DNA of 53,438 nucleotides from Candidatus Flemingiibacterium sp. (lineage in GTDB: Bacteria > Bacillota > Clostridia > Oscillospirales > CAG-272), in NCBI GenBank assembly GCA_045587285.1, contig JAZNBZ010000182.1, positions 1 through 53,438 of the forward strand, given 5' to 3'. Under the pieces are notes generated by a model. That model ran no database searches. It was not told where the DNA came from and was given only the letters and a program-made list of their open reading frames with translations. The translations under genes were made by a program, and so were the position numbers. Positions 1 through 11,983 of this stretch are shown here, piece by piece. How positions within the stretch are numbered: the first letter of the stretch is position 1; every line of letters starts with the position of its first letter.

Positions 1-915
1 GTGAACACCATTGTGCGCTTTCATACGCTCTGCAAGCCCGGTCGCGCTTCCGCAGAATTCATCTGCGCCGCTCTCTGTGAAGTAGCGGTCCACCTGTTCC
101 ACCGTAGGATCAAGGAGCTTCACCAGCGCAGGATTTTCATCACGCAGAAGCCATGTGCAGGTTTCCTCTGAAAACACCAGCGGAATTTCAATCGTCCGTA
201 TATCTCTGCCGGTGCAGAAAAGGGTTGCCGCATTTTCGGTGCGCTTGTCACGCTGTAATACAAACGAGCTGTCAGCCGCGCCTGAGATTCCGGTTGAACC
301 TGTGAGCATGTTCACCGGATCGCTTGCGCCCTCCTTGCGAAGATGATGTACAACCATTATTGCGATTCCGTGCTTCGTTGCAAGGGATTTCAGAATGCCC
401 ATATCCTTGTAATCCTTCGCGTAGAGATTTGTGTTGCCGATGTCCTCGCGGATCTTCTGAAAGGTATCAACGATCACCAGCTTCGTGTCCGGATTTGCTT
501 CCATGAATGTATCAATCTCATCACAGAACCCGTCTTCAAGCGGCTTGCACTCCACCGCGCATTTCAGAGAGGACGAGCCTTCGTCGGTGATGTCAAGCAG
601 TCGCCGCTGTAGGCGCTCGAAGCTGTCCTCCAGCGCGAGATACAAAACCGTGCCTTGACTTGTTTCATAATTCCATATCGGCTCACCGCGCGCAACTCGT
701 AGCCCGAACCAAAGCATCAGCCACGATTTGCCGATTTTAGACGCACCGCCTATGATGTGCAGCCCCTGCGGTATCAACTCTGACACAACGAACTGCGTGG
801 ACTGCACCGGCGTGCTCACAAGCGTTTCCGCATCCCGTGTATCAAGGCCTGCGAGCCCGAGGAACTCAAGCTGCTGCCGTCGTAATTCTTCATCGAAATT
901 AAATTCTCCGTTCAA
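1..915 (-). CDS. RepA/DnaB-like RecA-fold P-loop ATPase (AAA_25-like), 3' end runs off the window
   Basis: Absent from the ORF track because there is no stop inside the window. Minus-strand TTG at 915 sits 6 nt after GGAGG (926-922). The translation reads LNGEFNFDEELRRQQLEFLGLAGLDTRDAETLVSTPVQSTQFVVSELIPQGLHIIGGASKIGKSWLMLWFGLRVARGEPIWNYETSQGTVLYLALEDSFERLQRRL... It has a Walker A (GxxxxGKS) followed by an LALED strand. Confidence 0.7.
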   Translation of the reverse strand, partial: MNGEFNFDEELRRQQLEFLGLAGLDTRDAETLVSTPVQSTQFVVSELIPQGLHIIGGASKIGKSWLMLWFGLRVARGEPIWNYETSQGTVLYLALEDSFERLQRRLLDITDEGSSSLKCAVECKPLEDGFCDEIDTFMEANPDTKLVIVDTFQKIREDIGNTNLYAKDYKDMGILKSLATKHGIAIMVVHHLRKEGASDPVNMLTGSTGISGAADSSFVLQRDKRTENAATLFCTGRDIRTIEIPLVFSEETCTWLLRDENPALVKLLDPTVEQVDRYFTESGADEFCGSATGLAERMKAHNGVH

Positions 916-1262: not shown

Positions 1263-2606
1263 ATGGCGAAGCTGCCGCCGAATCCGTTTAAGATTACCGC
1301 ATATTATTCGGGGAATACTTGTATCATAGATGCGAAGCACCGGTATCAAACCTGCGAGGTACTCTGCAAGCTGTTCGATTATCATCCCGATCATGATCTC
1401 GCACTTATGCGTGATGAGCTGAAATCCTTACTGCAGACTCTGCTGTTCAAATTTGATGTAAATTACAGCGCTTGGGAGAATTACGACAAGAACGTATACA
1501 GAGCGCAAAAGGTTCTGAACGACGTGAAGGAGCTTCTGTGCAAGCTTACGCTGTATCGGTATATAACGAATCCAGACACGTTTGATTACGAAGATTTGAT
1601 TCACTGCCTCAGTCTGCACTCGTCTATGTTTGATAAGCACTACGACGACCGAGCAACTCGTGCGGAGCAGGATGATGAGAAAGAAAAAATGCGCGAGCGT
1701 GGTGTACCCGAAGATACCATTAGAAAAATGTTTGATCCCCTCGAAGAGGATGAAGAGGATTACGAGGAAGGCTTTGAAGATCCCAATGAGCAGTACTCCT
1801 TTCATGAGGATGCAAGGTACAAGGAGCGTGACTACGGCTTCTACGACAGCCATGTACTCGAATCGGTTTTGACGTCAAAGGACGATATGCGCCATTTTCA
1901 GCCTTACTGGTACAACGACGATCAGGAGCTGGAGGATTATCTCGGTGCGGAGCTTCTCAACAATGATCTGCGTGCGCTGATTGAGCCGTACATCGATTTG
2001 CTCGACACGCTGACGCATTTGGCGGATACCTACGGGCGTTTTCTCGATGAATACGTTCACTCACGCGGCAAGTTCCTGACGGATGCAGAGATTGCAGAGG
2101 TTTACGAAAATTATGTGAAGGTGGAGGAAAGGCAGATCATCAAGCCCTCCGGCGTGATGTCGCTTGAATGTAAGCCGATCAAGCAAGGCAGCAAATCCGT
2201 GTGGTGCGATGTGTATACATTCAATAGCTTGTCAGCGTTCCTGTACTTCGATTTCTTCCGCGGACTGCGGAGCGGATTTATCCCCAAGCGGTGTGTACAT
2301 TGCGGCAAGTATTTTCTGCTGACTTCGGGGCGGTACTATGACTTCTGCGAGCGTGCAGTGAAGGGGACAAGCGGCAAGACCTGCCGCGATATTGGTGCGC
2401 ATAAGAAGTACGAGGAAAAGTGCAAAAGTGATCCTATATGGCTTGCCTACAATCGAGCGTATAAAAATCACTACGCGAGAGTTCTCAAAAAGAAAATGAC
2501 CAAGTCCGAATTTCGGACTTGGTCGGATTGGGCAAAGGTGTATAGAGATAAGGCGATAGCAGGGAAGGTAAGAATAGAGGAGTATGAGAAGCGGATTCGG
2601 GAGTGA
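1263..2606 (+). CDS. Hypothetical protein, DUF6076-like, acidic middle region and C-terminal Cys cluster (CVHCGKYF...YYDFCER...GKTCRDIG)
   Basis: 447-aa ORF with GGGAG 8 nt upstream of the ATG. The C-terminal zinc-ribbon-like motif and overall layout resemble DUF6076 proteins of clostridial mobile elements. The family call is from memory only. Confidence 0.65.
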   Translation: MAKLPPNPFKITAYYSGNTCIIDAKHRYQTCEVLCKLFDYHPDHDLALMRDELKSLLQTLLFKFDVNYSAWENYDKNVYRAQKVLNDVKELLCKLTLYRYITNPDTFDYEDLIHCLSLHSSMFDKHYDDRATRAEQDDEKEKMRERGVPEDTIRKMFDPLEEDEEDYEEGFEDPNEQYSFHEDARYKERDYGFYDSHVLESVLTSKDDMRHFQPYWYNDDQELEDYLGAELLNNDLRALIEPYIDLLDTLTHLADTYGRFLDEYVHSRGKFLTDAEIAEVYENYVKVEERQIIKPSGVMSLECKPIKQGSKSVWCDVYTFNSLSAFLYFDFFRGLRSGFIPKRCVHCGKYFLLTSGRYYDFCERAVKGTSGKTCRDIGAHKKYEEKCKSDPIWLAYNRAYKNHYARVLKKKMTKSEFRTWSDWAKVYRDKAIAGKVRIEEYEKRIRE

Positions 2607-2620
2607 GGTGAGGTCTGGTA

Positions 2621-2839
2621 ATGAGCAAAGAGATGATTTTTACTGTTTTTTGTTTGGAAAGCTATAAAAACCACAGAAAGTTGACTGGAAAACAGGTGGT
2701 GTCGCTTTTTGAACGGTATGGGGCGTTTGATTATATTCGCGAGTTCTATGAAGTTCTTCACACAACCGGTCATAATTACATCAACAATGACATTGATATT
2801 TATTTGAGTTCCAGAGGATATAGTGTTAATGTTGGATAA
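2621..2839 (+). CDS. DUF3791 domain protein
   Basis: 72 aa: MSKEMIFTVFCLESYKNHRKLTGKQVVSLFERYGAFDYIREFYEVLHTTGHNYINNDIDIYL. This matches the DUF3791 pattern I know. GAGGTGAGG RBS. No DUF3990 partner follows. Confidence 0.6.
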   Translation: MSKEMIFTVFCLESYKNHRKLTGKQVVSLFERYGAFDYIREFYEVLHTTGHNYINNDIDIYLSSRGYSVNVG

Positions 2840-2843
2840 GCGG

Positions 2844-2872
2844 TTGACAAAATTTGGTGAGCGATGTATAAT
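2844..2872 (+). promoter_or_regulatory. Consensus promoter TTGACA-17-TATAAT
   Basis: -35 at 2844-2849 and -10 at 2867-2872. Confidence 0.55.
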
Positions 2873-2878
2873 ATATTC

Positions 2879-2950
2879 AGTGATCGAGTTGCAGAAACCT
2901 GAGAGGCCTGTGACCGGGGGAGTTTCCTGCGGGAACTCCCTCACTTTTTA
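2879..2950 (+). ncRNA. Candidate ~70-nt small RNA (promoter to intrinsic terminator), convergent with the hipA-like gene
   Basis: Predicted TSS is ~2879. The terminator is GGGAGTT (2918-2924) / AACTCCC (2934-2940) with a 9-nt loop, then TCACTTTTT. No ORF with an RBS lies inside. Confidence 0.35.
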
Positions 2951-3025
2951 TGTGACGAAAACCAGCAGCTTACCATCAAGCAATATTAAATCGTTTTTAG
3001 CCATTTTACACCTCGATGCTAATAC

Positions 3026-4075
3026 TCATCTGCTCTCCAAAATTTCATTAAATCTTCCCATAACTAAATCAACAATGACTTGTGACTTAACTCTCATGTT
3101 TAGCCTTTCAATCACATCACGCACAATTGATTCGGTAAGCACAGGAATATATGCACGATAATTTGGATACTCGTCCATAAGCTCATTAAACAATGAGATC
3201 AACATATCCTTAGATCCTGGTTTTGATGGGTACCCACGCGAGATCAATGCCATGTTGTTATCATAGTTCGGAGCAAATCCAATTAACTCTCCCGTCTTGG
3301 TATTTCGCAAAAGTCCGAAGTTGTTTGTGTGCCTATCGGGATTGGCACAAATGGTATCCATAAAGATCATTCTGATATAATCGGGAATAGCATTTGGACA
3401 AATATTTTTGAGTTCATTGATAACGTCAAAATAATCTTCGTTATCCCCCATGAAAGTAGAGGCAGGTTCGAAATTGACCGTTGCGAAGTCAGTAAAATCA
3501 AGTGACTTAATATATCCATCTCCACGCTCATAAATAGCCATATTCATCCCAAGCGCTTTTCCAAGCTCATAAATGAAAAGTTCAGAAAACATTTCGTTAT
3601 GAGTGGCTTTTTTGTACATCCACCATTTTCCGTCGCGAAGCTTCCAGCACTTTTCAAAACTTCCCACATTGGTAAGTTCAGGGGTTTTTGAACGCTTGCT
3701 ATTGGCGGCACGGTTAAAACTGTCATAGTTTCCTTTTAAGGCAAGATTGGAAAAATAGTCATCGGAAAATTTGACATCATTGTAGGTAAGATTAGAACCG
3801 ATTTCACGAATCCAATAATTATCTGTTATCGTCGCTCCGTTCACGTGTATAACGGTAGATATATCATCCTTCTCGTTTAAGCGAAGAGCTTTCTTTAAAA
3901 GACGAGAGTTGGCGCGGTGACTGTCAATAGCACGAGTCTCGAGCCACATATTCGCATTCTGAATTTTGCGTAAATACAAGGGAAGCAAAGTTTCATTCAA
4001 GACAGTAAGCATATTATTCTTCCATACAGCTACAAGAGTATCTCCGCTTAATATTTCGTAATTTCTATTAGTCAT
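3026..4075 (-). CDS. Short HipA-like Ser/Thr kinase (putative type II toxin)
   Basis: 349 aa. Catalytic-loop motif ICANPDRHTNNFGLL (DxHxxN of HipA_C). Its ATG overlaps the stop of the upstream HTH gene by 8 nt (ATGACTAA). GGAGGGGGAG RBS. Confidence 0.7.
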   Translation of the reverse strand: MTNRNYEILSGDTLVAVWKNNMLTVLNETLLPLYLRKIQNANMWLETRAIDSHRANSRLLKKALRLNEKDDISTVIHVNGATITDNYWIREIGSNLTYNDVKFSDDYFSNLALKGNYDSFNRAANSKRSKTPELTNVGSFEKCWKLRDGKWWMYKKATHNEMFSELFIYELGKALGMNMAIYERGDGYIKSLDFTDFATVNFEPASTFMGDNEDYFDVINELKNICPNAIPDYIRMIFMDTICANPDRHTNNFGLLRNTKTGELIGFAPNYDNNMALISRGYPSKPGSKDMLISLFNELMDEYPNYRAYIPVLTESIVRDVIERLNMRVKSQVIVDLVMGRFNEILESR

Positions 4076-4301
4076 TAGACTCCCCCTCCTTCACATTATC
4101 TTCGGGAATAAACTCCATAATATCATCAAGCGTACAGTTAAGTGCCTTACATATCTTGCCCAGAACCTCAACCGTCACATTGTTTCCCGCGCTCATTTTG
4201 CTGATCGTAAAATTGCTTATGCCAGCAAGTTCTGCGAGATCTTTCTTTTTCATATCTCTGTCTATTAGTAATTTCCAAAGTTTCTTATAGCTTACCGCCA
4301 T
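4068..4301 (-). CDS. XRE-family HTH protein (HipB-like antitoxin/repressor)
   Basis: MAVSYKKLWKLLIDRDMKKKDLAELAGISNFTISKMSAGNNVTVEVLGKICKALNCTLDDIMEF. Start moved to the ATG at 4301 (GAGGTG RBS). The track ORF start at 4370 lies inside the promoter. Confidence 0.8.
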   Translation of the reverse strand: MAVSYKKLWKLLIDRDMKKKDLAELAGISNFTISKMSAGNNVTVEVLGKICKALNCTLDDIMEFIPEDNVKEGESND

Positions 4302-4338
4302 TTTGCACCTCACAGTAGTATTTACATTCTGTGCTTTT

Positions 4339-4370
4339 ATTATAGCATAATATTTTATTGTTGTCAACAA
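4339..4370 (-). promoter_or_regulatory. Consensus promoter TTGACA-17-TATAAT whose -35 is embedded in the 13-bp palindrome TTGTTGACAACAA
   Basis: -35 at 4367-4362, -10 at 4344-4339, palindrome at 4358-4370. The palindrome is related to the TTGTCGACAA sites at 975 and 1182. Confidence 0.55.
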
Positions 4371-4518
4371 ACTATTTTAGTGATTGCAAAGTTATTTTTG
4401 CGTTTGATAAAAAACGCTTCGCAAGTCATTTCGTGATTTCTTGCAGTGCAATAATATTGCAACTATATTATAACTTATCCTGCTTATCTTGTAAAAAATA
4501 CAAAAATGCCAAATGCAC

Positions 4519-4547
4519 TTGACAAATGGACCGTTCAGAGTTACAAT
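4519..4547 (+). promoter_or_regulatory. Promoter TTGACA-17-TACAAT
   Basis: -35 at 4519-4524 and -10 at 4542-4547. Confidence 0.55.
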
Positions 4548-4790
4548 AAAAGTACCGAAGCCCCCGATTTTGCCGATTGCATAGCAATTCAGTGCATAGT
4601 GCTGGTGCATAGTGGGTATGATTATGCACCAAATGTACATAGAAGGGGTAACACGAAAATCGCCAAAAAGGGCGTAAAAAGCGTAAATACGGCACGATAT
4701 TCCGAGATATGGCACGATAAAGCCTCAAAACCTTGGTGCATAGGCCCATTGGGGTGGTAGAGGCCGCAAGTTCAAGTCTTGTCACTCAGA

Positions 4791-4825
4791 CCAACAAAAG
4801 GAGATTCGTAAGAATCTCCTTTTTG
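4791..4825 (+). repeat. Direct repeat copy A (ACCAACAAAAGGAGATTCGTAAGAATCT...)
   Basis: About 85 percent identical over ~29 nt to 6042-6076. It covers the CCA tail and terminator of the candidate RNA. Confidence 0.6.
4796..4825 (+). terminator. Intrinsic terminator
   Basis: AAAAGGAGATTC / GTAA tetraloop / GAATCTCCTTTT followed by T. Confidence 0.7.
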
Positions 4826-4834
4826 CTTTGTCAA

Positions 4835-5570
4835 GACAACCACCAGCGGAGCTGGTGGCACTAAAAAGCTTTAGCTATGAGTAGAAAAAGAACCTCCTTT
4901 GATGTATAATAGATTTGGTCTGCCAACCAAACAAAAAAACATCAAAGGAGGATCAAGTCTTGAAGCTTGACATAGATAGTTTAGCACATACGCGATGGAA
5001 TTGCAAGTACCATATTGTATTTGCGCCAAAATACCGAAGACAAATAATATACGGGAAGATAAAAGCAGATATAGGTATTATGTTGCGAAAGCTCTGCGAA
5101 TACAAGGGAGTAGAAATACTTGAAGCAGAGGCATGTAAAGACCATATACATATGCTTGTATCGATACCGCCCAAGTATAGTGTATCTCAAATAATGGGAT
5201 ATCTCAAAGGAAAAAGCAGTTTGATGATATTCGAGAAATATGCAAATTTGAAATACAAATATGGAAATAGGCATTTTTGGTGCAGAGGATATTATGTAGA
5301 TACGGTTGGCCGAAATAAAAAGGCAATTGAGCAGTACATACGGAATCAACTGCAACAAGATTATGAGGATGATCAATTGAGTATAAAAGAGTTTGTTGAC
5401 CCGTTCACGGGTGAGCCAGTAAAAGGAGGCAAATAAGTAAAGCCCCTTTAGGGGCATGCCGGTGAAAGTCGTGCGGTTGGCAGACTTTTCGACGAGCCTT
5501 AAGGCTCAGCCTATGACATGCCCCAAGGGGGCTTATTCAAACCACCGGCACGGCCGGTGGTTATGATTAT
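4835..5570 (+). mobile_element. IS200-type element (IS200/IS605 family, tnpA only)
   Basis: Left-end hairpin CCACCAGC-GGA-GCTGGTGG (4840-4858). Related right-end hairpin AACCACCGGC-ACG-GCCGGTGGTT (5540-5562). A 13-bp stem CCTCCTTTGATGT (4893-4905) / ACATCAAAGGAGG (4939-4951) sequesters the RBS. Size is ~0.73 kb. Ends are approximate. Confidence 0.8.
4960..5436 (+). CDS. tnpA: IS200/IS605 family Y1 (HUH) transposase TnpA
   Basis: ...HTRWNCKYHIVFAPKYRRQIIYGKIK...DHIHMLVSIPPKYSVSQIMGYLKGKSS... shows the HUH motif and Y1 family signature. The probable start is the TTG at 4960, 8 nt after AAGGAGG. Confidence 0.85.
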   Translation: MKLDIDSLAHTRWNCKYHIVFAPKYRRQIIYGKIKADIGIMLRKLCEYKGVEILEAEACKDHIHMLVSIPPKYSVSQIMGYLKGKSSLMIFEKYANLKYKYGNRHFWCRGYYVDTVGRNKKAIEQYIRNQLQQDYEDDQLSIKEFVDPFTGEPVKGGK

Positions 5571-5617
5571 GTAGCGGGGGTTTTTGGGGGATGGCGATGG
5601 TTGCGGCGGCTCGAAAA

Positions 5618-5690
5618 TGGGCGATGTTTTGGGGAGCGAAAGTGGCTCGAAAATGGCTTTGACCACATGTTTGACCACTTTTGTGCAAAA
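5618..5690. repeat. Two pairs of short direct repeats: GGCTCGAAAATGG x2 and TTTGACCAC x2
   Basis: GGCTCGAAAATGG occurs twice about 35 nt apart. TTTGACCACATGTTTGACCAC lies directly downstream. No ORF. Confidence 0.4.
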
Positions 5691-5734
5691 AAGTCTATAT
5701 GCCTCCAGGCTTTTTGACGCTTTGCGATTTTTTT

Positions 5735-5847
5735 ATACAAAATGACGGCGGTTCCCTGCTTTGAGAACCGCCGTTTGCGAATATTCAGAGTTTTTTCTTT
5801 GTCTACTGTGGCGCAAATTTTGAGCTGGAGGCACTTTTTCTACACAA
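5735..5847 (-). ncRNA. Candidate ~110-nt minus-strand transcript
   Basis: Minus-strand promoter TTGACA-16-TATTAT (-35 at 5882-5877, -10 at 5860-5855). A 10-bp hairpin ACGGCGGTTC / GAACCGCCGT (5745-5774) is followed on the minus strand by CATTTTGT. The U-tract is weak. Confidence 0.2.
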
Positions 5848-5879
5848 CTGCCCTATAATAGCAAATTTTTAGATAATGT

Positions 5880-5932
5880 CAAGTTAACGAGGGGAAATTT
5901 GCTTGTTTTATATTTTTACCCTCGTTAACTTG
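5880..5932. repeat. Perfect 14-bp inverted repeat CAAGTTAACGAGGG-N25-CCCTCGTTAACTTG
   Basis: Arms at 5880-5893 and 5919-5932. No flanking U-tract on either strand. The left arm overlaps the -35 of the minus-strand promoter. Confidence 0.6.
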
Positions 5933-6041
5933 GAAATCCTCGCACATTATCGCCCCTAGCGGTCATCTTTGATTTTTCTATCTCTAAGCCAGCTCGTCGT
6001 AGGAACTGTATGTTTAAGTTATATCTGGTATGAACGCTTGA

Positions 6042-6076
6042 ACCAACAAAAATGGAATTCGTAAGAATCTTTTTTG
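6042..6076 (+). repeat. Direct repeat copy B (ACCAACAAAAATGGAATTCGTAAGAATCT...), degenerate
   Basis: Matches 4791-4825. The terminator stem is broken by substitutions. Confidence 0.6.
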
Positions 6077-6110
6077 GATTTATATAGTGAGACTTTTTGA
6101 GGAAATCAAC

Positions 6111-6138
6111 AAAAAATCAGGCAGGTAAATGCGCCTGG
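6111..6138 (-). terminator. Weak intrinsic terminator of the DUF3892 operon
   Basis: On the minus strand, CAGGC-N10-GCCTG is followed by ATTTTTT. Confidence 0.35.
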
Positions 6139-6163
6139 TATCCGCATCACTTGCATGGACGTG

Positions 6164-6406
6164 TTATTTGAATTTTATTTCGAGATCAACTTTACTTGTC
6201 GCCCCACACTTGGTACATCTTGCATTTCCCTTGGATAATATTTCGATTGTAGTTTTGCCGCATTTCTGGCAATTTCCATCTATTATATCGCCAACATGCG
6301 AATCGAGTACTTTATCGGGATTCTTTTTCAAATCCTTTTCCACGTCTTTTTGAATTTCTTTTAACAGTTTGTTTGCGTTAAACCCTTTGATTTTCACACT
6401 TGCCAT
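6164..6406 (-). CDS. Small zinc-ribbon protein (CxxC-x13-CxxC), unknown function
   Basis: MASVKIKGFNANKLLKEIQKDVEKDLKKNPDKVLDSHVGDIIDGNCQKCGKTTIEILSKGNARCTKCGATSKVDLEIKFK. The GGGAGG RBS lies inside the end of the upstream gene. Confidence 0.6.
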   Translation of the reverse strand: MASVKIKGFNANKLLKEIQKDVEKDLKKNPDKVLDSHVGDIIDGNCQKCGKTTIEILSKGNARCTKCGATSKVDLEIKFK

Positions 6407-6408
6407 AG

Positions 6409-6693
6409 TCAACCAACCTCCCTCGGAAGATCAAGAAGATTATCGTGAGTATAGTCGTTGGGAGACGAACGAACATACTTTTCCCCGTTTACGCTAACCG
6501 CATCAATTACATTCGGGTAAGGGAATCTATCCACCTTTATGCTTCCAGGATTTTCCTTAACATAATCGTGAATAACAGATTTTTTGTAGTAGCCAGGAGT
6601 TTCACATCCAGTTATATAAAGCTGGTCAATTTCAACCAGTTTATCGGAGTAATAACATCCAGGCTTCATTTTAATCTTGGTTACATGCATCAT
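6409..6693 (-). CDS. DUF3892-like protein
   Basis: The C-terminal ...NGEKYVRSSPNDYTHDNLLDLPRE matches the DUF3892 signature (xYxRTxPDxxxxDNLLxLP) as I recall it. The ATG at 6693 is 6 nt after GAGGTG. Confidence 0.55.
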   Translation of the reverse strand: MMHVTKIKMKPGCYYSDKLVEIDQLYITGCETPGYYKKSVIHDYVKENPGSIKVDRFPYPNVIDAVSVNGEKYVRSSPNDYTHDNLLDLPREVG

Positions 6694-6774
6694 TAAATGC
6701 ACCTCATTTCATAATATTTATTTGAAAACAGACACCAAGAAAAAATGAGCAACTTCACATCTTTTGAGATAAAG

Positions 6775-6807
6775 TACTTGACTTTTGGAATTCAAGTATG
6801 TTATAAT
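6775..6807 (+). promoter_or_regulatory. Extended -10 promoter TTGACT-18-(TGT)TATAAT overlapped by the inverted repeat TACTTGA-N10-TCAAGTA
   Basis: -35 at 6778-6783 and -10 at 6802-6807. Inverted-repeat arms at 6775-6781 and 6792-6798. Confidence 0.5.
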
Positions 6808-6813
6808 AGCCTT

Positions 6814-6907
6814 GTCTGTGGAAACATGGCTTGAGTAATCTCAACTTGATGCTATGTAGACATTCTTGCAGCGTGTTAGATACCAGCTAACACGCTGTTC
6901 CTTTTTG
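6814..6907 (+). ncRNA. Candidate ~90-nt cis-antisense RNA to the leader of the DUF3892 operon
   Basis: It starts downstream of the 6778 promoter. It ends at an 11-bp stem CAGCGTGTTAG (6869-6879) / CTAACACGCTG (6887-6897) followed by TTCCTTTTT. It is fully complementary to the minus-strand leader. Confidence 0.4.
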
Positions 6908-6961
6908 TCTGTAATCATCTGTAAATTAGCGAACCTCCAATATCGCATTCTTGATAATGAT

Positions 6962-6990
6962 ATTATAACACATTTTGCACATTTTGTCAA
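6962..6990 (-). promoter_or_regulatory. Consensus promoter TTGACA-17-TATAAT for the DUF3892/zinc-ribbon operon (~260-nt leader)
   Basis: -35 at 6990-6985 and -10 at 6967-6962. Confidence 0.5.
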
Positions 6991-7033
6991 TATATTTCCT
7001 GGAATATTATTCAAAAAATTGAATAATAATAAA

Positions 7034-7076
7034 ATTCAAGAAAATACTTGACATTTCTCGCAATATATGATATAAT
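7034..7076 (+). promoter_or_regulatory. Consensus promoter TTGACA-17-TATAAT with upstream AATTCAAG-AAAA-TACTTGAC motif pair
   Basis: -35 at 7048-7053 and -10 at 7071-7076. The same two 8-mers occur at the 6775-6798 promoter. Confidence 0.55.
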
Positions 7077-7103
7077 ATATTATCTTTTTAGGAGGTTTTT
7101 GTT

Positions 7104-8144
7104 ATGCCTAAAATCGTTGTTACAGAAAGATTGGCCGACACCCTAAAAATGTTACGTGCACAAAATGGCATCAAATCGAAGGATCTTGCAGAACATTTAG
7201 GTAAAACACCAGGGTATGTTTCAAAACTAGAAAAACAAGAAGTAAAGAATATCGAATTAGAAACCGTTGAATCTATCTTTTCTTTTATATTAGGAGCGGA
7301 CTATAAAAAAACCGAAATATGGGAACAAATTTATGCCTCACTTCAAATTAGATATTCAAAAGCAGAGATAGATGAAGAAATTTGGTTCGCTAACTTTGAC
7401 ACAGTCTATAGATATATTCCAATACCCGAAACTGTAATAGATTACTTTAATGACAAAATATTCTCCTTAAATATTACACGTGATTTCCTTTTGGAACGAA
7501 TGAACGCAAACGAGGCATTGTCTGATGAAGAAATCAATGATGAGAATATAAAACCTAATGTTTGGTATCCTGCGGCACCAGATGGAAAAGCATCAATTAA
7601 AATTTGCATCTCTGAAAATGTGTTGTCAAATATTTTGGATAAAAAAATGCGTTCTTCTCCGTACGTATTTGTCTTTTGCATACTCTACTACTTACTAAAG
7701 ATTGAAAAATATAGTGATGTCATAAAAATAGATGATTCTCAAATTCGACAACTAAATCAAGAAGCAAAGTCTATTTTAAATTCGCATAAATTTTATTCTA
7801 TAGCTGAGAGAGAAAATATCGTAAAGCAGGCTCAATCCCAAGAAGAGATACACAATTTACTTAGTTCTTTTGATAATGATAATGCAAAATTGATTGGTGA
7901 AATTCTTGATGAATTAAAATTTGCAAGTGATATTAATATCCAAATAACTAATGATAGGTTAACTGGATTTCTTAAAAACTTAAAAACAGATGCCTGGTTC
8001 ACTCTTAAACTTATAAGTTTGGAGTATCATGCGCTCGACTCTATAGACATATCACAGAGGAAAGAATTCTTAAAAGAAGTTGAAAAACTTATAAAAAAGT
8101 ATACCGATACACAAAAAAATCTTAAGAACACTGAAACGTATTAA
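7104..8144 (+). CDS. XRE-family HTH domain protein with ~270-aa unassigned C-terminal domain
   Basis: 346 aa. The N-terminus LRAQNGIKSKDLAEHLGKTPGYVSKLEKQEVKNIELETVESIF is a Cro/CI-type HTH. AGGAGG RBS. The coding sequence is very AT-rich. Confidence 0.75.
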   Translation: MPKIVVTERLADTLKMLRAQNGIKSKDLAEHLGKTPGYVSKLEKQEVKNIELETVESIFSFILGADYKKTEIWEQIYASLQIRYSKAEIDEEIWFANFDTVYRYIPIPETVIDYFNDKIFSLNITRDFLLERMNANEALSDEEINDENIKPNVWYPAAPDGKASIKICISENVLSNILDKKMRSSPYVFVFCILYYLLKIEKYSDVIKIDDSQIRQLNQEAKSILNSHKFYSIAERENIVKQAQSQEEIHNLLSSFDNDNAKLIGEILDELKFASDINIQITNDRLTGFLKNLKTDAWFTLKLISLEYHALDSIDISQRKEFLKEVEKLIKKYTDTQKNLKNTETY

Positions 8145-8158
8145 TTACCCGAAAAAGC

Positions 8159-8188
8159 GGCGAGATTTGTCTCGCCTCCCTTTTCTTT
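8159..8188 (+). terminator. Intrinsic terminator
   Basis: GGCGAGA-TTTG-TCTCGCC followed by TCCCTTTTCTTT. Confidence 0.6.
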
Positions 8189-8267
8189 GTATGGTACAAT
8201 ATAAGCGTAGCCCTATACCGTGTAAATTGGTATAGTCAGCTATGCTTATTTTTGTTATAATAAGGAA

Positions 8268-8470
8268 GTAACTGGCTGACGGTTCTTTGATGAACTACGC
8301 GTTCGTGCAGTAAACAGTCACCCACCTTCTTGTTATAGAGATTCGATTAAGCAGGTTGTTCCGTTTTTTGCTGGTTGGGGTACCCCAACCAGCAAAAAAT
8401 CGCGTCCGTGTCACGAGCCAAAGATGAGTCGTAATAAGCTTGGTGGAAACGTTACGAAAAAACACAAAGG
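8268..8470 (+). ncRNA. Candidate IS110 bridge (seek) RNA in the left end
   Basis: Extended -10 promoter TAGTCA-17-(TGT)TATAAT at 8233-8261. The structured region includes an 18-bp perfect hairpin. Position 5' of the recombinase matches the IS110-group layout. Confidence 0.4.
8364..8399. repeat. Perfect 36-nt palindrome T6-GCTGGTTGGGGTACCCCAACCAGC-A6
   Basis: Read directly from the sequence. T-run before and A-run after on both strands, so it is not an intrinsic terminator. Confidence 0.8.
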
Positions 8471-8482
8471 AAGGAGTTTTTT

Positions 8483-9679
8483 ATGATTAGTGTTGGAATC
8501 GATGTTTCAAAGGGAAAAAGCACCGTGTGCTTTTTCAAGCCGGGTGGTGAGGTATTGGTAACACCATTTGAGGTCGCTCACATAAAAGATGAATTGGGGC
8601 AGCTCGCCGACCGAATTAATTCTTATGAAGAGGAGGTGCGCGTGGTTCTTGAGAACACAGGTTATTACCATTGGCCTGTGGTGAAACTTCTTGTTGAACG
8701 TGGTGTTTTTGTTTCGGCAGTCAATCCTCTGAAAATGAAGAATTTCTGCTCCCAAAACATCAGAAAAGTAAAAAACGACCGCATAGATGCCATACATATC
8801 GCATCCTACGGTCTTACCTATTGGCACGAGCTCATTCCCATACAAAGCAGTGAGGATACCTATAGAGAATTGCTTCTGCTATCCAGACAATACCACAACG
8901 TAATAAATCTTCTGATCAAGGCAAAGCTCAATTTCGGAAATCTGCTCGATCAGGTCATGCCAGGTATTACTTCGGTCATCAGAGATGATCGAGGCTCTAA
9001 ATTAACAGAATTCGTAAAGAAGTATGTGCATTTTCAGCAGATAGACTCTATGGGTGAAGCCCGCTTCGTTCGGGATTTCTGCAAATGGTCACAAAAACAG
9101 GGATACCGTGTAGATCACGAACGTCAGGCGAAGAAGATCTTCTCCCTTGTTCAAAACGGCATCCCTGTCCTTCCTCACACACCAACCACAAAAATTGTTG
9201 TTTTGGAAGGTTTACGGAGAGTTAACGAGCTTGAAAACTCCCGTGACATTATTTTAGCACAAATGAACGAGCTTGGCAAGACCCTTCCTGAATATTCTTT
9301 AATTTCCGAGATGAAGTGTATAGGCGAAGGTTTAACACCGAGGATAATTGCGGAGATTGGTGATGTCAGAAGATTTCACAACAAGCACTCTCTTATTGCC
9401 TACGCCGGTATTGACGCACCGCCTTACCAATCCGGATCGTATAATGCTACGGAACGCCATATTACGAAACGCGGCAACAAATATCTGCGAAAGGTTATCT
9501 TTGAGGTTTGTTTGAGTTACATCCAGCACAAGCCTGAAGGCGATCCTGTATATGAGTTCATCGAGAAGAAGCGTTCTGAAGGTAAATGCGGAAAGGAATC
9601 CTTGGTCGCTGGTATTAACAAATTCCTTCGCATTTACTACGGCAAGGTTACCGAGCTTTACCGTGAATTAGAACTCTAA
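8483..9679 (+). CDS. IS110 family DEDD transposase/recombinase
   Basis: MISVGIDVSKGKS...VLENTGYYHWP...KNDRIDAIHIA (DEDD RuvC-like N-domain). C-terminal ...IAEIGDVRRFHNKHSLIAYAGIDAPPYQSGSY...KRGNKYLRK (Transposase_20). AAGGAGT RBS. Confidence 0.9.
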   Translation: MISVGIDVSKGKSTVCFFKPGGEVLVTPFEVAHIKDELGQLADRINSYEEEVRVVLENTGYYHWPVVKLLVERGVFVSAVNPLKMKNFCSQNIRKVKNDRIDAIHIASYGLTYWHELIPIQSSEDTYRELLLLSRQYHNVINLLIKAKLNFGNLLDQVMPGITSVIRDDRGSKLTEFVKKYVHFQQIDSMGEARFVRDFCKWSQKQGYRVDHERQAKKIFSLVQNGIPVLPHTPTTKIVVLEGLRRVNELENSRDIILAQMNELGKTLPEYSLISEMKCIGEGLTPRIIAEIGDVRRFHNKHSLIAYAGIDAPPYQSGSYNATERHITKRGNKYLRKVIFEVCLSYIQHKPEGDPVYEFIEKKRSEGKCGKESLVAGINKFLRIYYGKVTELYRELEL

Positions 9680-9702
9680 TTACATACAACCGAATACCTC
9701 TC

Positions 9703-9734
9703 GGGCGAAAAATTTCATACTTTTTCGCCCTTTT
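9703..9734 (+). terminator. Intrinsic terminator
   Basis: GGGCGAAAAA-N8-TTTTTCGCCC followed by TTTT. Confidence 0.6.
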
Positions 9735-9836
9735 GGTGCTGCTCATGTTAGCTCAAAAAATTCTCGATTATTTTTGAAAAACCTATTGACTTTTCTTAGC
9801 AGGTTTACTGCGGTGCAAATATTGGACGCCGATCTC

Positions 9837-9865
9837 TTGACTTTCCCCTTAAACTATGCTACAAT
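9837..9865 (+). promoter_or_regulatory. Promoter TTGACT-17-TACAAT
   Basis: -35 at 9837-9842 and -10 at 9860-9865. Confidence 0.5.
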
Positions 9866-9871
9866 AATATA

Positions 9872-9978
9872 AACGAAAACGTCACCGGAGGCAGAACGCC
9901 GTAGTGTTCAATTGCCGGATTAGGTGTCCGAGTGAGCTCGGGTTATTGTGTATGCAATAGCCGGAGCCTGATTTTTTT
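9872..9978 (+). promoter_or_regulatory. Structured ~120-nt leader with terminator/alternative hairpin (attenuator or riboswitch candidate) upstream of the GNAT gene
   Basis: Hairpin CCGAG-TGAG-CTCGG (9928-9941) competes with the longer helix GCTCGGG...CCGGAGC (9936-9967). That helix is followed by CTGATTTTTTT (T7 at 9972-9978). Confidence 0.35.
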
Positions 9979-9993
9979 GCTTTGGAGGTAATT

Positions 9994-10548
9994 ATGAAAA
10001 CCACAAAAGTAGCCCTTGTTCCGCTCACCGCAGACGACCGTGAGCAGTTCATCCTCGATAACCAATGGTCGTTCAAATACGGCGCAATGCAAGAGTTTGG
10101 CGAGCGCGACGATCACATCGACGGCGACGGCGAAATCATCTCCCGTAAGACGATTGAGCGCTGCATCGACGATCCGCAAAACGAAACCTATCGCATAGTC
10201 GTGGACAGCAGGAAGGTCGGCGGCGTGATTTTGAAAATTGACCGCGAGACTAACCACAATCATCTTGAGATACTCTTCACATCGCCCGAGGAGCACAGCA
10301 AAGGTATCGGCTACGGCGCGTGGCAGGCAGTGGAAGCGCTTCATCCCGAAACCGTAGTTTGGGAGACTTGCACACCGTATTTCGAGAAACGCAACATCCA
10401 TTTTTACGTCAACAAATGCGGCTTCAAGATCGATCAGTTCTGGTGCGAGTATTTCCAGCCGGACGTGCCGAAGATCGACGATGAAAAGCACGATCCCGAC
10501 GAAGGTCCGGATGAAATGTTCCGATTTGTGAAGGTGATGAAGCCGTAG
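9994..10548 (+). CDS. GNAT family N-acetyltransferase
   Basis: 185 aa with ...LEILFTSPEEHSKGIGYGAWQAVE...YVNKCGFK (acetyl-CoA binding-type motif). GGAGG 5 nt before the ATG at 9994. Confidence 0.75.
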   Translation: MKTTKVALVPLTADDREQFILDNQWSFKYGAMQEFGERDDHIDGDGEIISRKTIERCIDDPQNETYRIVVDSRKVGGVILKIDRETNHNHLEILFTSPEEHSKGIGYGAWQAVEALHPETVVWETCTPYFEKRNIHFYVNKCGFKIDQFWCEYFQPDVPKIDDEKHDPDEGPDEMFRFVKVMKP

Positions 10549-10594
10549 GCGTTTTCTTTGACCATGCGATGCAGATTTTCATCCGCGAAACCGC

Positions 10595-10623
10595 TTGACA
10601 ATCGCCGCAACAAGCGCTACAAT
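10595..10623 (+). promoter_or_regulatory. Consensus promoter TTGACA-17-TACAAT pointing antisense into the 3' end of the regulator gene
   Basis: -35 at 10595-10600 and -10 at 10618-10623. No plausible plus-strand ORF follows. Confidence 0.35.
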
Positions 10624-10636
10624 ACAAACGCCCTCA

Positions 10637-11755
10637 TTATCCCCCGCTGCTTTCGCGAACTACGAGATGAGAGCTGACCTTGTGCTTTGCGGGAATATGA
10701 TTTGGATTATTGACGTAATCCATCATAACCTCAAAAGCCGTCCTCGCAATGTCTGTGTAGAGGTACGCCATAGTCGTGAGCGTGGGGGATACGGAGCTGG
10801 TTATGGGCAAATCGTCAAAGCCCACTATCATAACGTCCTTTGGAACTATAAGCCTTTCGTGCTTTCCGAGGTTGTAATTCTTAATGCTTCGAAGTACCTC
10901 CGCCGCTAACATATCGTGGTGACAAAATACGCCTATCGGAAGCAGTTCTCTTTGTTTTTTTAGCCTGCGTATCAGAGCAGATACGAGCCGCTTGACGTTG
11001 TCAGCATCTATTTTTCCGCCCGTGTTTGAAACAACGCCGATGTGCTCGCTCGGAATACTCTTCCCTGCTTCTGTCAGCTGATGATAATATCCCTCGAAGC
11101 GCTGATCCTTGTCAACGCAGTCACTGAGCGCGAAATAGTAAAATGACCGACAGCCGCAGGACAGAAGGTGACCTGCAACCTGCTTGCCTGCACTCAAATT
11201 ATCTACCAAAACCGTATCGGCGTTCGGAAGATCAACGTCCTCGGCAAGCGTAACGATAGGTAACGGATACCTGGAAAAGTACGGCTGCTGATAAGACGAT
11301 AACGACGAACAGTTAAACACCCCACAGCATCCAAGCTCAAAAAACATATCCATTATATCCCGTTCACGCTCCCGTATCCCTCCGCCGTCAGAAACGATAA
11401 GCTGCATTTGATTTTCACAAGCAACGGCTTGCAGATTCTGCAAAACAGACGAAAAGAACGGATTGTTGATATTGTTTACGAGAACACCGAAGATGTTTTT
11501 CTGCCTTCGGTCGTAAAATTTTCGCATAGGCGCTCCGGCTTTACAAAATCCGCTGCATACGTAATATCCGCCTCCAAGCGCTCGAATAAATCCCTCGGCT
11601 TTAAGGCGCTCGTACACTCGCATAGCGTCCCTTGAAGAACACCGCCGTGCATTTGCAAACTCACGCGCTGTAATAAAACGCGAGCCGGAAATTCCGTATT
11701 TTCCATTTACGATATCCGCCTTTGCGCTTTGGAACAGTTCATCGGCACGGCTCAC
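10637..11755 (-). CDS. Transcriptional regulator, GntR-type wHTH fused to a LacI/PBP-type sugar-binding domain
   Basis: N-terminus ...FITAREFANARRCSSRDAMRVYERLKAEGFI (GntR-like). The remainder is periplasmic-binding-fold (IVGFDDLP...). Start reassigned to the GTG at 11755, 8 nt after AAGGAGG. Confidence 0.75.
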   Translation of the reverse strand: MSRADELFQSAKADIVNGKYGISGSRFITAREFANARRCSSRDAMRVYERLKAEGFIRALGGGYYVCSGFCKAGAPMRKFYDRRQKNIFGVLVNNINNPFFSSVLQNLQAVACENQMQLIVSDGGGIRERERDIMDMFFELGCCGVFNCSSLSSYQQPYFSRYPLPIVTLAEDVDLPNADTVLVDNLSAGKQVAGHLLSCGCRSFYYFALSDCVDKDQRFEGYYHQLTEAGKSIPSEHIGVVSNTGGKIDADNVKRLVSALIRRLKKQRELLPIGVFCHHDMLAAEVLRSIKNYNLGKHERLIVPKDVMIVGFDDLPITSSVSPTLTTMAYLYTDIARTAFEVMMDYVNNPNHIPAKHKVSSHLVVRESSGG

Positions 11756-11983
11756 AGAACGCACCTCCTTATGCAAAATCTCCGTACTGTCAGGATAGAA
11801 TCTTTTTCCTTGAGAACAGTATATCATATTTCTGTGAACTATTCAAGAGCTTTGGGTAACATCGCGGCGATGTTTCCTTTAAAAGTACCCAAAAGCATAC
11901 CGACGCCCTATACGCTGTGATATAATAAAATCGACGGTAATCTTCGTTAAACATTGATATATTACATACAGGTGCTATTTATT

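Follow-up and report, generated by a model that had tools for sequence, protein, structure and literature searches.

An RNA-gene-like interval of a Candidatus Flemingiibacterium contig is very probably the right attachment junction of an integrative element in tRNA-Pro(GGG)

Does the interval at positions 4519-4825 of a 53,438-nucleotide contig from Candidatus Flemingiibacterium sp. (the whole stretch being referred to here as the window) encode a new kind of RNA that ends like a tRNA, or has another process brought its parts together? The interval runs from a sigma-70-type promoter to an intrinsic terminator, and an earlier note read it as an unclassified RNA gene whose tRNA-like 3′ end could act as an integrase attachment site, as a substrate of RNase P or the CCA-adding enzyme, or as a primer for reverse transcription. 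The analysis reported here retains the first of these three roles. The region is very probably an attR: an integrative element, either conjugative or mobilisable, would have entered a tRNA-Pro(GGG) gene through a tyrosine integrase that recombines within the anticodon loop, and the interval would be the junction on its right. Three parts make up this junction, namely the conserved arm of the element, which presumably binds integrase, the 3′ half displaced from the host tRNA-Pro gene, and the terminator native to that gene (Table 1). An integration scar of this sort is ordinary and well understood, and a new RNA class is not indicated.

Table 1. Features of the junction and of the adjoining parts of the window.
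Feature	Coordinates	Strand	Basis or remark
Backbone gene, AAA_25 (RepA-like) ATPase, cut by the window edge	1-915	-	Frame open
Backbone gene, DUF6076	1263-2606	+	Pfam PF19553, E = 1e-35
Cargo insertion in a hot spot just upstream of the right-end block	2952-4510	-	Pfam, relatives
HipA_C-like kinase (cargo)	3026-4075	-	Pfam
Cro/C1 HTH protein (cargo)	4068-4301	-	Pfam; the cargo insertion also holds the promoter region of both genes
Conserved right-end block of the element, putative P arm	4511-4748	+	Homologous blocks elsewhere
Outward sigma-70-type promoter, TTGACA-17-TACAAT	4519-4547	+	Predicted start near 4554
Three direct (G)TGCATAG boxes, putative arm-type integrase sites	4578-4584, 4592-4599, 4605-4612	+	
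Inverted box TATGCAC, 3′ arm of the hairpin described earlier	4623-4629	-	
Near-invariant stretch AAAAAGCGTAAATACGGCACGATATTCCGAGATA	4677-4712	.	88% conserved across homologues
Fourth GTGCATAG copy, next to the core	4736-4743	+	Restricted to the window and L030
3′ half of host tRNA-Pro(GGG), displaced	4749-4794	+	100% identity to intact ARAGORN-called genes
TTGGGGT, tRNA-Pro(GGG) anticodon loop; putative crossover (overlap) region	4749-4755	+	Left limit of identity
Native intrinsic terminator of the tRNA-Pro gene	4796-4829	+	Identical sequence after the intact tRNA in L015 and L016
IS200-family insertion right after the terminator, not part of the junction	4830-5566	+	
Host flank (B′ side), ordinarily next to the tRNA-Pro terminator	5567-5732	+	Resumes behind the IS200 insertion
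Second, degenerate copy of the tRNA 3′ end and terminator	6024-6075	+	Direct repeat D3, 81%

The 3′ portion of the interval belongs to the host. The tRNA half matches the last 46 nt of tRNA-Pro(GGG) from Oscillospiraceae and Ca. Flemingiibacterium genomes at 46 of 46 positions, the intact ARAGORN-called genes with this full identity being those of loci L007, L009 to L012, L015, L016 and L018. In L015 and L016 the half and the terminator together (4749-4829) are 100% identical to their counterpart, and eight further intact tRNA-Pro(GGG) genes match positions 4749-4800. The fragment comprises the anticodon loop, the 3′ strand of the anticodon stem, the variable loop, the T arm, the 3′ acceptor strand, A73 and CCA, that is, tRNA positions 32-76, the first 31 nt having been replaced by element sequence; the tRNA model of Rfam accordingly gives a 5′-truncated match (model positions 31-71, 16.2 bits). 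The terminator described earlier exists as it was drawn, with a 12-pair stem, a GTAA loop and a T-run at 4796-4823, and belongs to the tRNA-Pro gene, those of L019 and L020 being near-identical to it. The T arm GCAAG-TTCAAGT-CTTGT followed by CACTCAG-A-CCA is likewise present. What is not supported is the idea that these parts form a separate tRNA-like minihelix: they are the genuine 3′ half of tRNA-Pro(GGG), and the drawing of a minihelix depends on a chance resemblance between the anticodon loop and stem (UUGGGGUGG) and the 5′ acceptor strand (CUGGGUG). The earlier note was right in setting aside a canonical tRNA and a tmRNA, since ARAGORN calls neither across the window, the complete cloverleaf is missing and Rfam yields no tmRNA match even at E ≤ 10.

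The break point is exact. In the window and in the junctions of L013, L014 and L020, which have unrelated upstream DNA, identity to the intact tRNA starts precisely at TTGGGGT, and a break base common to the window and three other genomes fits a tyrosine-integrase crossover in the anticodon loop. A window that holds neither an intact tRNA nor an integrase gene could also suggest a tRNA pseudogene in decay, left by a deletion or rearrangement with no link to site-specific integration, but this origin is extremely improbable: four independent junction types are broken at one and the same base, where the anticodon loop starts; the 46 nt of the tRNA half are 100% intact; mobile-element genes lie immediately upstream; and 11 other loci likewise have the conserved element end directly against the fragment. 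A displaced 3′ tDNA fragment reportedly marks the attR of an island, ICE or prophage integrated in a tRNA gene (Reiter 1989; Williams 2002). The Islander survey describes islands that regenerate their target tDNA and leave a displaced fragment, with a 3′ fragment in 3760 of 3919 islands, an anticodon-centred site in 2083 and tandem arrays among the entries (PMC4383910). The fragment in the window resembles them as a 3′ tRNA part that keeps the orientation of the gene, starts at the anticodon loop (the ‘A’ sublocation of Islander) and lies between mobile-element genes (5′) and host flank (3′), in an apparent tandem array of remnants; it departs from the typical case in that the partner intact tRNA and the integrase lie beyond the window.

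Downstream of the junction, the order of the host DNA can be followed across a later arrival. The IS200-family insertion was recognized by an STnc490 match (IS200 5′UTR; 4838-4948, 50.9 bits, Rfam) and by a Y1_Tnp open reading frame (ORF) at 4960-5436 (Pfam). The flank that resumes behind it is 93% identical to L015 1943-2108 and 89% identical to L019, and in both of these loci the same flank directly follows the intact tRNA and its terminator. Judging from its sequence, the degenerate copy of the tRNA end further downstream is a putative remnant of an older integration in a tandem array; L036 holds a similar short junction, TATGAACACTCCGACCA. The search for repeats in the window returned this degenerate copy of the tRNA end and terminator only, at 6049-6075, and a search for a second att site with a 28-mer, three mismatches being allowed, matched nothing in the window other than the query itself.

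The other end of the element lies elsewhere. The 3′ half would have been displaced when the element's own copy rebuilt the tRNA at the far (left) junction, outside the window; the intact tRNA-Pro and the left junction of this element are beyond window position 1. The expected attL arrangement, in which tRNA-Pro is followed by the terminator, the boxes and an integrase, is seen in L038-L040, and in L009 a distance of 3.7 kb separates an intact tRNA from a fragment. Among the loci fetched, none carries both ends of a block-bearing element. Recovery of the left end was attempted through further DUF6076 and integrase homologues; of the loci obtained, L036-L040 stop short of their right ends. Scans of viral contigs with the tRNA/terminator junction, the hairpin and a conserved 18-mer were all empty, and protein scans of the same kind of contigs with DUF6076 and the integrase returned distant, irrelevant loci only.

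The DNA on the left of the break point is equally characteristic. The right-end block has seven further distinct sequences in 11 loci (L013, L023, L025/L045, L027, L028, L030/L031, L032-L035), which are 69-87% identical over the block itself; beyond it, identity on both flanks drops to 31-35%. Every copy directly abuts a tRNA-Pro 3′ half at the end of an element. The question put in the earlier note, whether homologues are always located at island borders, is answered in the affirmative, and their constant position there argues for an attachment arm over a free-standing gene. The block-bearing elements carry genes for a relaxase, NikA, AAA_25 and DUF6076, and some loci also TraG/VirD4 or TraX. 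In the window, positions 4-2607 are 89% identical to L030 8741-11345, where the gene cut by the window edge is called with PF13481 (AAA_25). DUF6076 in relatives is always accompanied by AAA_25, NikA-like and relaxase genes (neighbourhoods L030-L035 and L045-L050). The block is missing in L041-L044 and L049-L050, and L041 uses a serine recombinase. A full-text literature search for DUF6076 returned no paper, and the element family (relaxase, NikA, AAA_25, DUF6076 and cargo, in Oscillospiraceae) appears not to have been described so far.

Between backbone and block lies DNA that relatives exchange. In L023 and L025, window positions 2865-2951 are joined almost directly to window position 4511, and other relatives have PIN with an antitoxin, or AAA-ATPase_like/PDDEXK_9, at this site. 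Exact look-ups of the XRE and HipA-like proteins gave no match, and the HipA-like relatives that viral contigs carry (L003-L006) have no DNA in common with the block, which indicates that the toxin module is movable cargo and not the block's partner.

Within the block, conservation is concentrated in short words. The earlier count of four GCATAG words is accurate, TGCATAG occurring at 4578, 4593, 4606 and 4737. The first three belong to the direct boxes, which are 98-100% conserved, whereas the 5-nt spacers between them are conserved at 52-70%; their offsets from the core (about -170, -155 and -142) are fixed in every homologue. Across the 53-kb window, GTGCATAG was observed five times against 1.1 expected, and three of the five copies lie within 152 nt here. 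At the position of the fourth copy, homologues other than L030 read GTGCAAAA. Boxes of the attR kind also stand beside an integrase at tRNA-Pro attL junctions: in L030 and L036-L040, boxes at 11-bp spacing lie between tRNA-Pro (with its terminator) and the gene for a 427-aa tyrosine integrase, in a stretch that reads GGTGCATAGTTAGTGCATAGCAAGTGCAAG or a close variant, and the motif is otherwise rare in these 17-21 kb loci. Because they are invariant among variable spacers and recur beside an integrase at the opposite junction, the GTGCATAG boxes are probably arm-type integrase sites. The near-invariant stretch AAAAAGCGTAAATACGGCACGATATTCCGAGATA is a possible accessory-protein site.

In lambda-type attP, a heterobivalent tyrosine integrase uses its N-terminal domain to bind arm-type sites (P1, P2 and P′1-P′3) in the arms. 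The present arrangement is similar in having short direct repeats about 10-15 bp apart, arms of about 140-170 bp either side of the core, and repeats that are common to both arms and invariant while the spacers drift; it differs in that the GTGCATAG motif is unrelated in sequence and the candidate integrase has no detectable known arm-binding domain. Heterobivalent binding of arm-type and core-type sites is an established mechanism for such integrases (PMC2951348). By this scheme, the N-terminal part of the integrase would bind the three GTGCATAG boxes here and the matching boxes in the other arm, its catalytic part would bind the core around TTGGGGT, and strands would be exchanged inside this 7-bp loop sequence.

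Candidates for the cognate enzyme come from relatives; no tyrosine integrase gene is present in the window. Tyrosine integrases of relatives are either internal, next to the relaxase (L032, L045), or beside matching boxes at tRNA-Pro (L030, L036-L040). In the box-adjacent candidate, about 108 residues, enough to accommodate an arm-binding domain, precede the SAM-like core-binding domain; Pfam recognized no arm-binding domain in it. The block-bearing elements of L032 and L045 carry an internal tyrosine integrase that differs from the box-adjacent one, and the latter may belong to a neighbouring element of a tandem array.

The same block was also considered as the body of a genuine, element-encoded non-coding RNA gene, with the tRNA half as its 3′ end and, for instance, a role as recombination regulator, recombination cofactor or tRNA-half decoy. 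The promoter hexamers are kept in 9 of 9 sequences while the spacer varies, and the terminator follows the tRNA half in every context, including the element-borne copies (L030, L036-L040), so that a unit of about 275-290 nt would be made both in the integrated and in the excised state. Moreover, base pairing is possible between a 5′ CCCCGA and the TTGGGG of the core, and the substitutions in this segment are mostly C to U, so that G-U pairs are retained. The fold tests point the other way. Compensatory changes in the proposed helices were found in the tRNA T stem only (8 sequences, giving low power), where they stem from a host tRNA variant, and the covariation term of RNAalifold is positive (+1.28 with six sequences; +0.88 with the eight sequences 69-87% identical to the window, at low power). 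The element-derived 195 nt have an ordinary fold (z = -0.95 against shuffles), and the z-score of -3.1 for the full 272 nt is due to the terminator and the T arm.

The individual structures fare no better. The hairpin GGTGCATA-N11-TATGCACC is indeed present at 4604-4630; across eight sequences, six of its pairs never vary and two are broken in three of the eight, and its 3′ arm mutates without compensation (A to C in L028/L032, also altered in L030), whereas the box sequence is invariant. Since the boxes recur in the other arm, outside the transcription unit, their role is expected at the level of DNA. The helix drawn between TTGGGGTG and CACTCAGA shows no covariation, has one position that never pairs, and is lost in L013, where the tRNA half has decayed. 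The reiterated words GCGTAAA and GGCACGATA do occur twice each, but their second copies are not conserved in homologues. Rfam gives no match to the region at its gathering score in a search of the whole window; at E ≤ 10 over 4300-4950 it finds only the IS200 5′UTR (STnc490) downstream and nothing relevant in 4519-4825. In common with tmRNA, viral tRNA-like structures and the tRNA-like domains of bacterial Y-RNAs, the interval is a longer transcript-like unit whose 3′ end carries a T arm, a 3′ acceptor strand and CCA. It differs from them in lacking a 5′ acceptor strand and a tag ORF; neither Rfam nor ARAGORN gives a match, and its tRNA-like part is half of a host tRNA gene, a host and not an element sequence, which is not kept as a helix in the older L013 copy. 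An RNA gene of this description is very unlikely, and the claim of an unclassified RNA with a tRNA-like end is not supported, its 3′ half and terminator being those of tRNA-Pro(GGG).

A coding function has next to no probability. ORFs of 84 aa (4506-4760, plus strand) and 105 aa (4468-4785, minus strand) do exist, and the latter, with its start at MTRLELAASTTP, is open over 66-122 codons in L013, L027 and L028. Both, however, lack a ribosome-binding site, in agreement with their earlier dismissal as junk. The plus-strand ORF starts upstream of the promoter and has no Pfam match, halfway through the block homologues differ by one-base indels that shift the frame, and the minus-strand ORF begins within the antisense of the tRNA T arm and stays open because that strand is pyrimidine-rich.

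The outward promoter deserves separate consideration. It is present where the earlier note placed it, with a match at 11 of 12 positions. One such match is weak evidence by itself, since this AT-rich spacer abounds in promoter-like sites (11 observed, 5.2 expected), but all homologues retain this one. None of the 9 sequences departs from the -35 hexamer, and in the -10 hexamer TAnnAT is kept and only positions 3-4 vary, whereas the spacer between the hexamers shows 70% conservation. The conserved stretch starts no more than about 10-15 nt upstream of the -35 hexamer. The promoter is thus more strictly conserved than a passive arm would need, which speaks against the region being an attR and nothing more. 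The promoter-to-terminator unit is found in every homologue, and an RNA gene would look alike.

One role for such a promoter is known from ICEclc, in which an outward promoter (Pcirc) is fused upstream of intB13 once the element is circular (PMC5812530). The promoter described here could likewise be effectively silent when integrated and, after circularisation, read across attP into the left-end genes (integrase), thereby boosting re-integration. The resemblance to ICEclc is that a conserved sigma-70-type promoter lies at the extreme end of the element and points across the attachment site (PMC5812530), and in L030 and L036-L040 the integrase is downstream of the tRNA half in the same orientation. 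Unlike in ICEclc, the tRNA half and a strong terminator stand between the promoter and any left-end gene, which makes a read-through role doubtful: all P′ arms seen have a strong intrinsic terminator between the tRNA half and the integrase (e.g., AATCGAGCC...GGCTCGATTTTTTG), and the integrase in these arms has its own promoter-like site. The left end of this particular element is outside the recovered DNA. On this evidence, a Pcirc-type function is rather unlikely.

Another precedent is KplE1, in which the promoter of intS overlaps the att arm and is autoregulated by Int and the RDF (PMC2951348). Here too, a promoter lies within a recombination arm beside putative arm-type sites, and bound recombination proteins could therefore control it; in KplE1, however, the promoter is at attL and drives the integrase gene, whereas the one in the window is at attR and drives no gene. 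Given its conservation, the outward promoter probably fires, in which case a run-off transcript of about 275 nt would be expected to stop at the tRNA terminator. This putative transcript is rated as a by-product or regulatory feature of the att arm, for example through occlusion of the promoter by integrase bound at +24 to +58, and not as a structured RNA gene. That an RNA of about 275 nt (arm, core and tRNA half) is dedicated to the control of recombination is a long shot; such an RNA might label the attachment site, block access to it or become loaded on the integrase complex, and it would, if real, be a tyrosine-integrase counterpart of the RNA-assisted site choice of IS110 elements.

Recognition of the region as a probable attR removes a false candidate for a new RNA class and illustrates how a displaced tRNA half that retains its own terminator can, behind a chance or real promoter, mimic an RNA gene with a tRNA-like end. 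The conserved outward promoter is left as a small puzzle in the regulation of att arms. For the apparently undescribed family of integrative elements from gut Oscillospiraceae, the right boundary is placed at base 4748/4749, the toxin or defence cargo is exchangeable, the target is identified as the anticodon loop of tRNA-Pro(GGG), and GTGCATAG is proposed as the arm-type recognition word; together, this target and word would help to map such islands in metagenomes.

The region is the attR junction of an element integrated in tRNA-Pro(GGG), in which a conserved P arm, bearing probable arm-type sites, is joined to the displaced 3′ half of the tRNA gene and its native terminator. An earlier note had proposed here an unclassified RNA gene of about 270 nt with a tRNA-like 3′ end, and the features that it listed were recovered, i.e., the promoter, the terminator, the interior hairpin GGTGCATA-N11-TATGCACC, four copies of the word GCATAG and a T-arm-like end reading GCAAG-TTCAAGT-CTTGT-CACTCAG-A-CCA. 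It was also right that this is neither a canonical tRNA nor a tmRNA, as ARAGORN found none in the 53-kb window. Rfam gave no match at gathering score, and a permissive scan of 4300–4950 matched nothing but STnc490 (50.9 bits, 4838–4948), the 5′UTR of the IS200 element immediately downstream.

What had been taken for the minihelix of a new RNA is half of a real tRNA-Pro(GGG) gene. BLAST of 4380–4830 against phage and plasmid records returned matches confined to the last ~50 nt, both falling on tRNA-Pro genes called by ARAGORN. A scan for the T-arm-to-terminator junction in one genome per species yielded 14 loci, all from Oscillospiraceae, Ca. Flemingiibacterium or Eubacteriales MAGs, 11 of which hold an intact tRNA-Pro(GGG) reading CTGGGTGTGGCGCAGTTGGTAGCGCGCTACC-TTGGGGT-GGTAGAGGCCGCAAGTTCAAGTCTTGTCACTCAGACCA. 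The last 46 nt of the intact gene are identical to the window's half from the first base of the anticodon loop. In two loci fetched from other genomes (L015 and L016; all L handles denote such loci or contigs), identity is 100% over window 4749–4829, including the terminator, which there lies 3′ of the intact gene; post-terminator DNA of L015 and L019 recurs at window 5567–5732 (93 and 89% identity, respectively). For the half alone, the Rfam tRNA model reports a 5′-truncated tRNA (model positions 31–71, 16.2 bits). Only the resemblance of UUGGGGUGG, from the anticodon loop and stem, to CUGGGUG, the true 5′ strand of the acceptor, allowed the helix TTGGGGTG/CACTCAGA of the earlier note to be drawn.

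The 3′ half also occurs without its 5′ half in three other genomes (L013, L014, L020), broken at exactly the window's base and with different DNA upstream in each. From its sequence, this shared break point bears the known signature of tRNA-gene integration and would be the integrase crossover site; Islander counts the anticodon loop as one canonical sublocation for crossover, and records tandem arrays as well (PMC4383910). The incoming element would supply a copy of the tRNA 3′ part, rebuilding the gene at one junction, and the original 3′ part would be displaced to the other. Additional partial tRNA copies in L007, L009 and L014, together with a degenerate copy in the window, indicate that the tRNA-Pro locus is an integration hot spot.

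Upstream of the tRNA half lie 240 nt that form the conserved end of an integrative element (the block). Homologues of 4511–4794 were sought by three routes and comprise L013 (72.5% identity), four loci from metagenomes scanned for a pair of neighbouring GTGCATAG boxes (L023, L025, L027, L028; 82–87%) and, among contigs encoding DUF6076 relatives, L030/L031 (90%), L032–L035 (87%) and L045/L048 (81%). In each of the eight distinct sequences, the tRNA-Pro half directly adjoins the block, and identity to the window rises from 31% upstream of the block to 70–100% within it and drops to 35% past ACCA. The gene order upstream is relaxase, NikA-like, AAA_25, DUF6076 and then a variable cargo slot, with TraG/VirD4 or TraX additionally present in some loci. 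Since window 2865–2951 is joined almost directly to 4511 in L023 and L025, the intervening 2952–4510 is inserted cargo. DUF6076 and the right-end block flank a hot spot for cargo.

Within the block, the −35 hexamer is without variation in all nine sequences and the −10 hexamer keeps the pattern T-A-n-n-A-T (TACAAT, TAAGAT, TAACAT, TAATAT, TATAAT), the spacer being 70% conserved. Three direct (G)TGCATAG boxes are 98–100% conserved vs. 52–70% for the intervening 5-nt spacers, at fixed offsets from the core of about −170, −155 and −142, and a 36-nt stretch is near-invariant. The interior hairpin exists only because an inverted box copy follows the third box, and this inverted arm carries uncompensated mutations in L028/L032 and L030.

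On the opposite (P′) arm, L030 reads tRNA half, terminator, GGTGCATtcttGGTtCATAGttGGTGCATAG and a truncated tyrosine integrase. Three loci (L038–L040) are classical attL junctions that encode full-length relatives of this integrase (427 aa, about 70% identity); each runs from host genes and a host promoter through an intact tRNA-Pro(GGG), a terminator and GGTGCATAGTTAGTGCATAGCAAGTGCAAG (11-bp spacing) to the integrase. The box motif is otherwise nearly missing from these loci (17–21 kb each). The repeats common to both arms, ~140–170 bp from the core, resemble arm-type sites and are probably bound by an integrase, by analogy with the heterobivalent mechanism summarised in PMC2951348. An attP-like sequence order can also be produced by a tandem array. 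A different, internal integrase adjoins the relaxase in L032 and L045, is a further candidate for the cognate enzyme, and is related to the minus-strand integrase of a tail-to-tail pair beside tRNA-Pro in L036–L040.

The promoter of the block looks real and faces outward, with the boxes (+24 to +58), core, tRNA half and terminator following in that order, so that a run-off RNA of ~275 nt is likely. It could possibly act like Pcirc of ICEclc (PMC5812530); however, a strong terminator separates the tRNA half from the integrase in every P′ arm examined, and the integrase has a promoter-like site of its own. Control by arm-bound proteins, as at KplE1 attL (PMC2951348), is plausible. That the att arm encodes a functional RNA is very improbable. 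The RNAalifold covariation term was positive, i.e., unfavourable (+1.28 with six sequences, +0.88 with eight), and compensatory pairs are confined to the tRNA T stem, originating in the host tRNA variant of L025. There (~590–640, reverse strand) and in L045, the T stem carries a compensatory double change, with GCTGG...CCAGT in place of GCAAG...CTTGT; it reflects variation in the host tRNA, and no other true covariation occurs in the alignment. The helices proposed earlier fared poorly: six pairs of the interior hairpin are invariant and two are broken in three of eight sequences, and the minihelix shows zero double changes and one position that never pairs. For the 195 nt from predicted start to tRNA half, folding gave z = −0.95, equalled by 31 of 200 shuffles, and therefore the z of −3.1 for the complete 272-nt unit is owed to the terminator and T arm; the antisense strand gave z = 0.02. 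The older copy in L013 retains an intact promoter and boxes next to a decayed T arm and acceptor strand, hence the tRNA-like end is not what is preserved.

Protein-coding readings were ruled out by frame-shifting indels, and have no ribosome-binding site. An antisense ORF starting MTRLELAASTTP (reverse complement of the T arm) is open for 66–122 codons in several homologues, in shifting frames; the pyrimidine richness of that strand keeps it open.

Directly 3′ of the tRNA-Pro terminator, an IS200-family insertion intervenes before the host flank, whose sequence continues from 5567. Beyond this flank, a low-GC stretch contains DUF3892, a 346-aa HTH protein and an IS110 element, probably remnants of older islands at tRNA-Pro. 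The non-coding stretch upstream of the IS110 transposase could contain a bridge-RNA-type element; Rfam at gathering score gave no match to it (8150–9679 region).

Coordinates of features in the window and in compared loci
Locus	Feature	Position	Details
Window	Cargo	2952–4510	HipA_C-like kinase and Cro/C1 HTH protein
L028, L032	Cargo	414–1093 (L028)	PIN and antitoxin
L023, L027, L030, L045	Cargo	757–2628 (L023)	AAA-ATPase_like/PDDEXK_9 protein
L013	ORF, probably chimeric or decayed	2594–3460	tyrosine-integrase catalytic domain fused to apparent N-terminal part of another integrase; back-to-back with block copy
Window	Block (inferred P arm)	4511–4748
Window	Promoter TTGACA-17-TACAAT	4519–4547	11/12 positions matching
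Window	Boxes	4578–4584, 4592–4599, 4605–4612
Window	Near-invariant stretch	4677–4712
Window	tRNA-Pro(GGG) 3′ half	4749–4794	core TTGGGGT, 4749–4755
Window	Terminator	4796–4823	12-pair hairpin, GTAA loop, T-run
Window	Antisense ORF	4468–4785	minus strand
L028	Antisense ORF	101–379
L013	Antisense ORF	2041–2409
Window	IS200-family element	4830–5566	STnc490-like 5′UTR; Y1 transposase ORF 4960–5436
Window	Low-GC stretch	5733–9900	30–43% vs. about 50% in remaining window; before LacI-type regulator (10637–11827)
Window	Degenerate second tRNA 3′ end and terminator	6024–6075	TATGAACGCTTGAACCAACAAAAATGGAATTCGTAAGAATCTTTTTT
L036	Short junction resembling this degenerate copy	~9690–9720	TATGAACACTCCGACCA
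L036–L040	Two different tyrosine integrase genes, tail-to-tail	10001–12990	427 aa, plus strand; then 163-aa ORF and 395–414-aa integrase, minus strand
Window	Perfect 18+18-nt palindrome	8364–8399	upstream of IS110-family transposase
Window	IS110-family transposase	8483–9679	DEDD_Tnp_IS110 and Transposase_20

For annotation, gene callers may mis-annotate the antisense ORF. As a kind of feature the junction is fully known; the element family and its recognition word are apparently undescribed.
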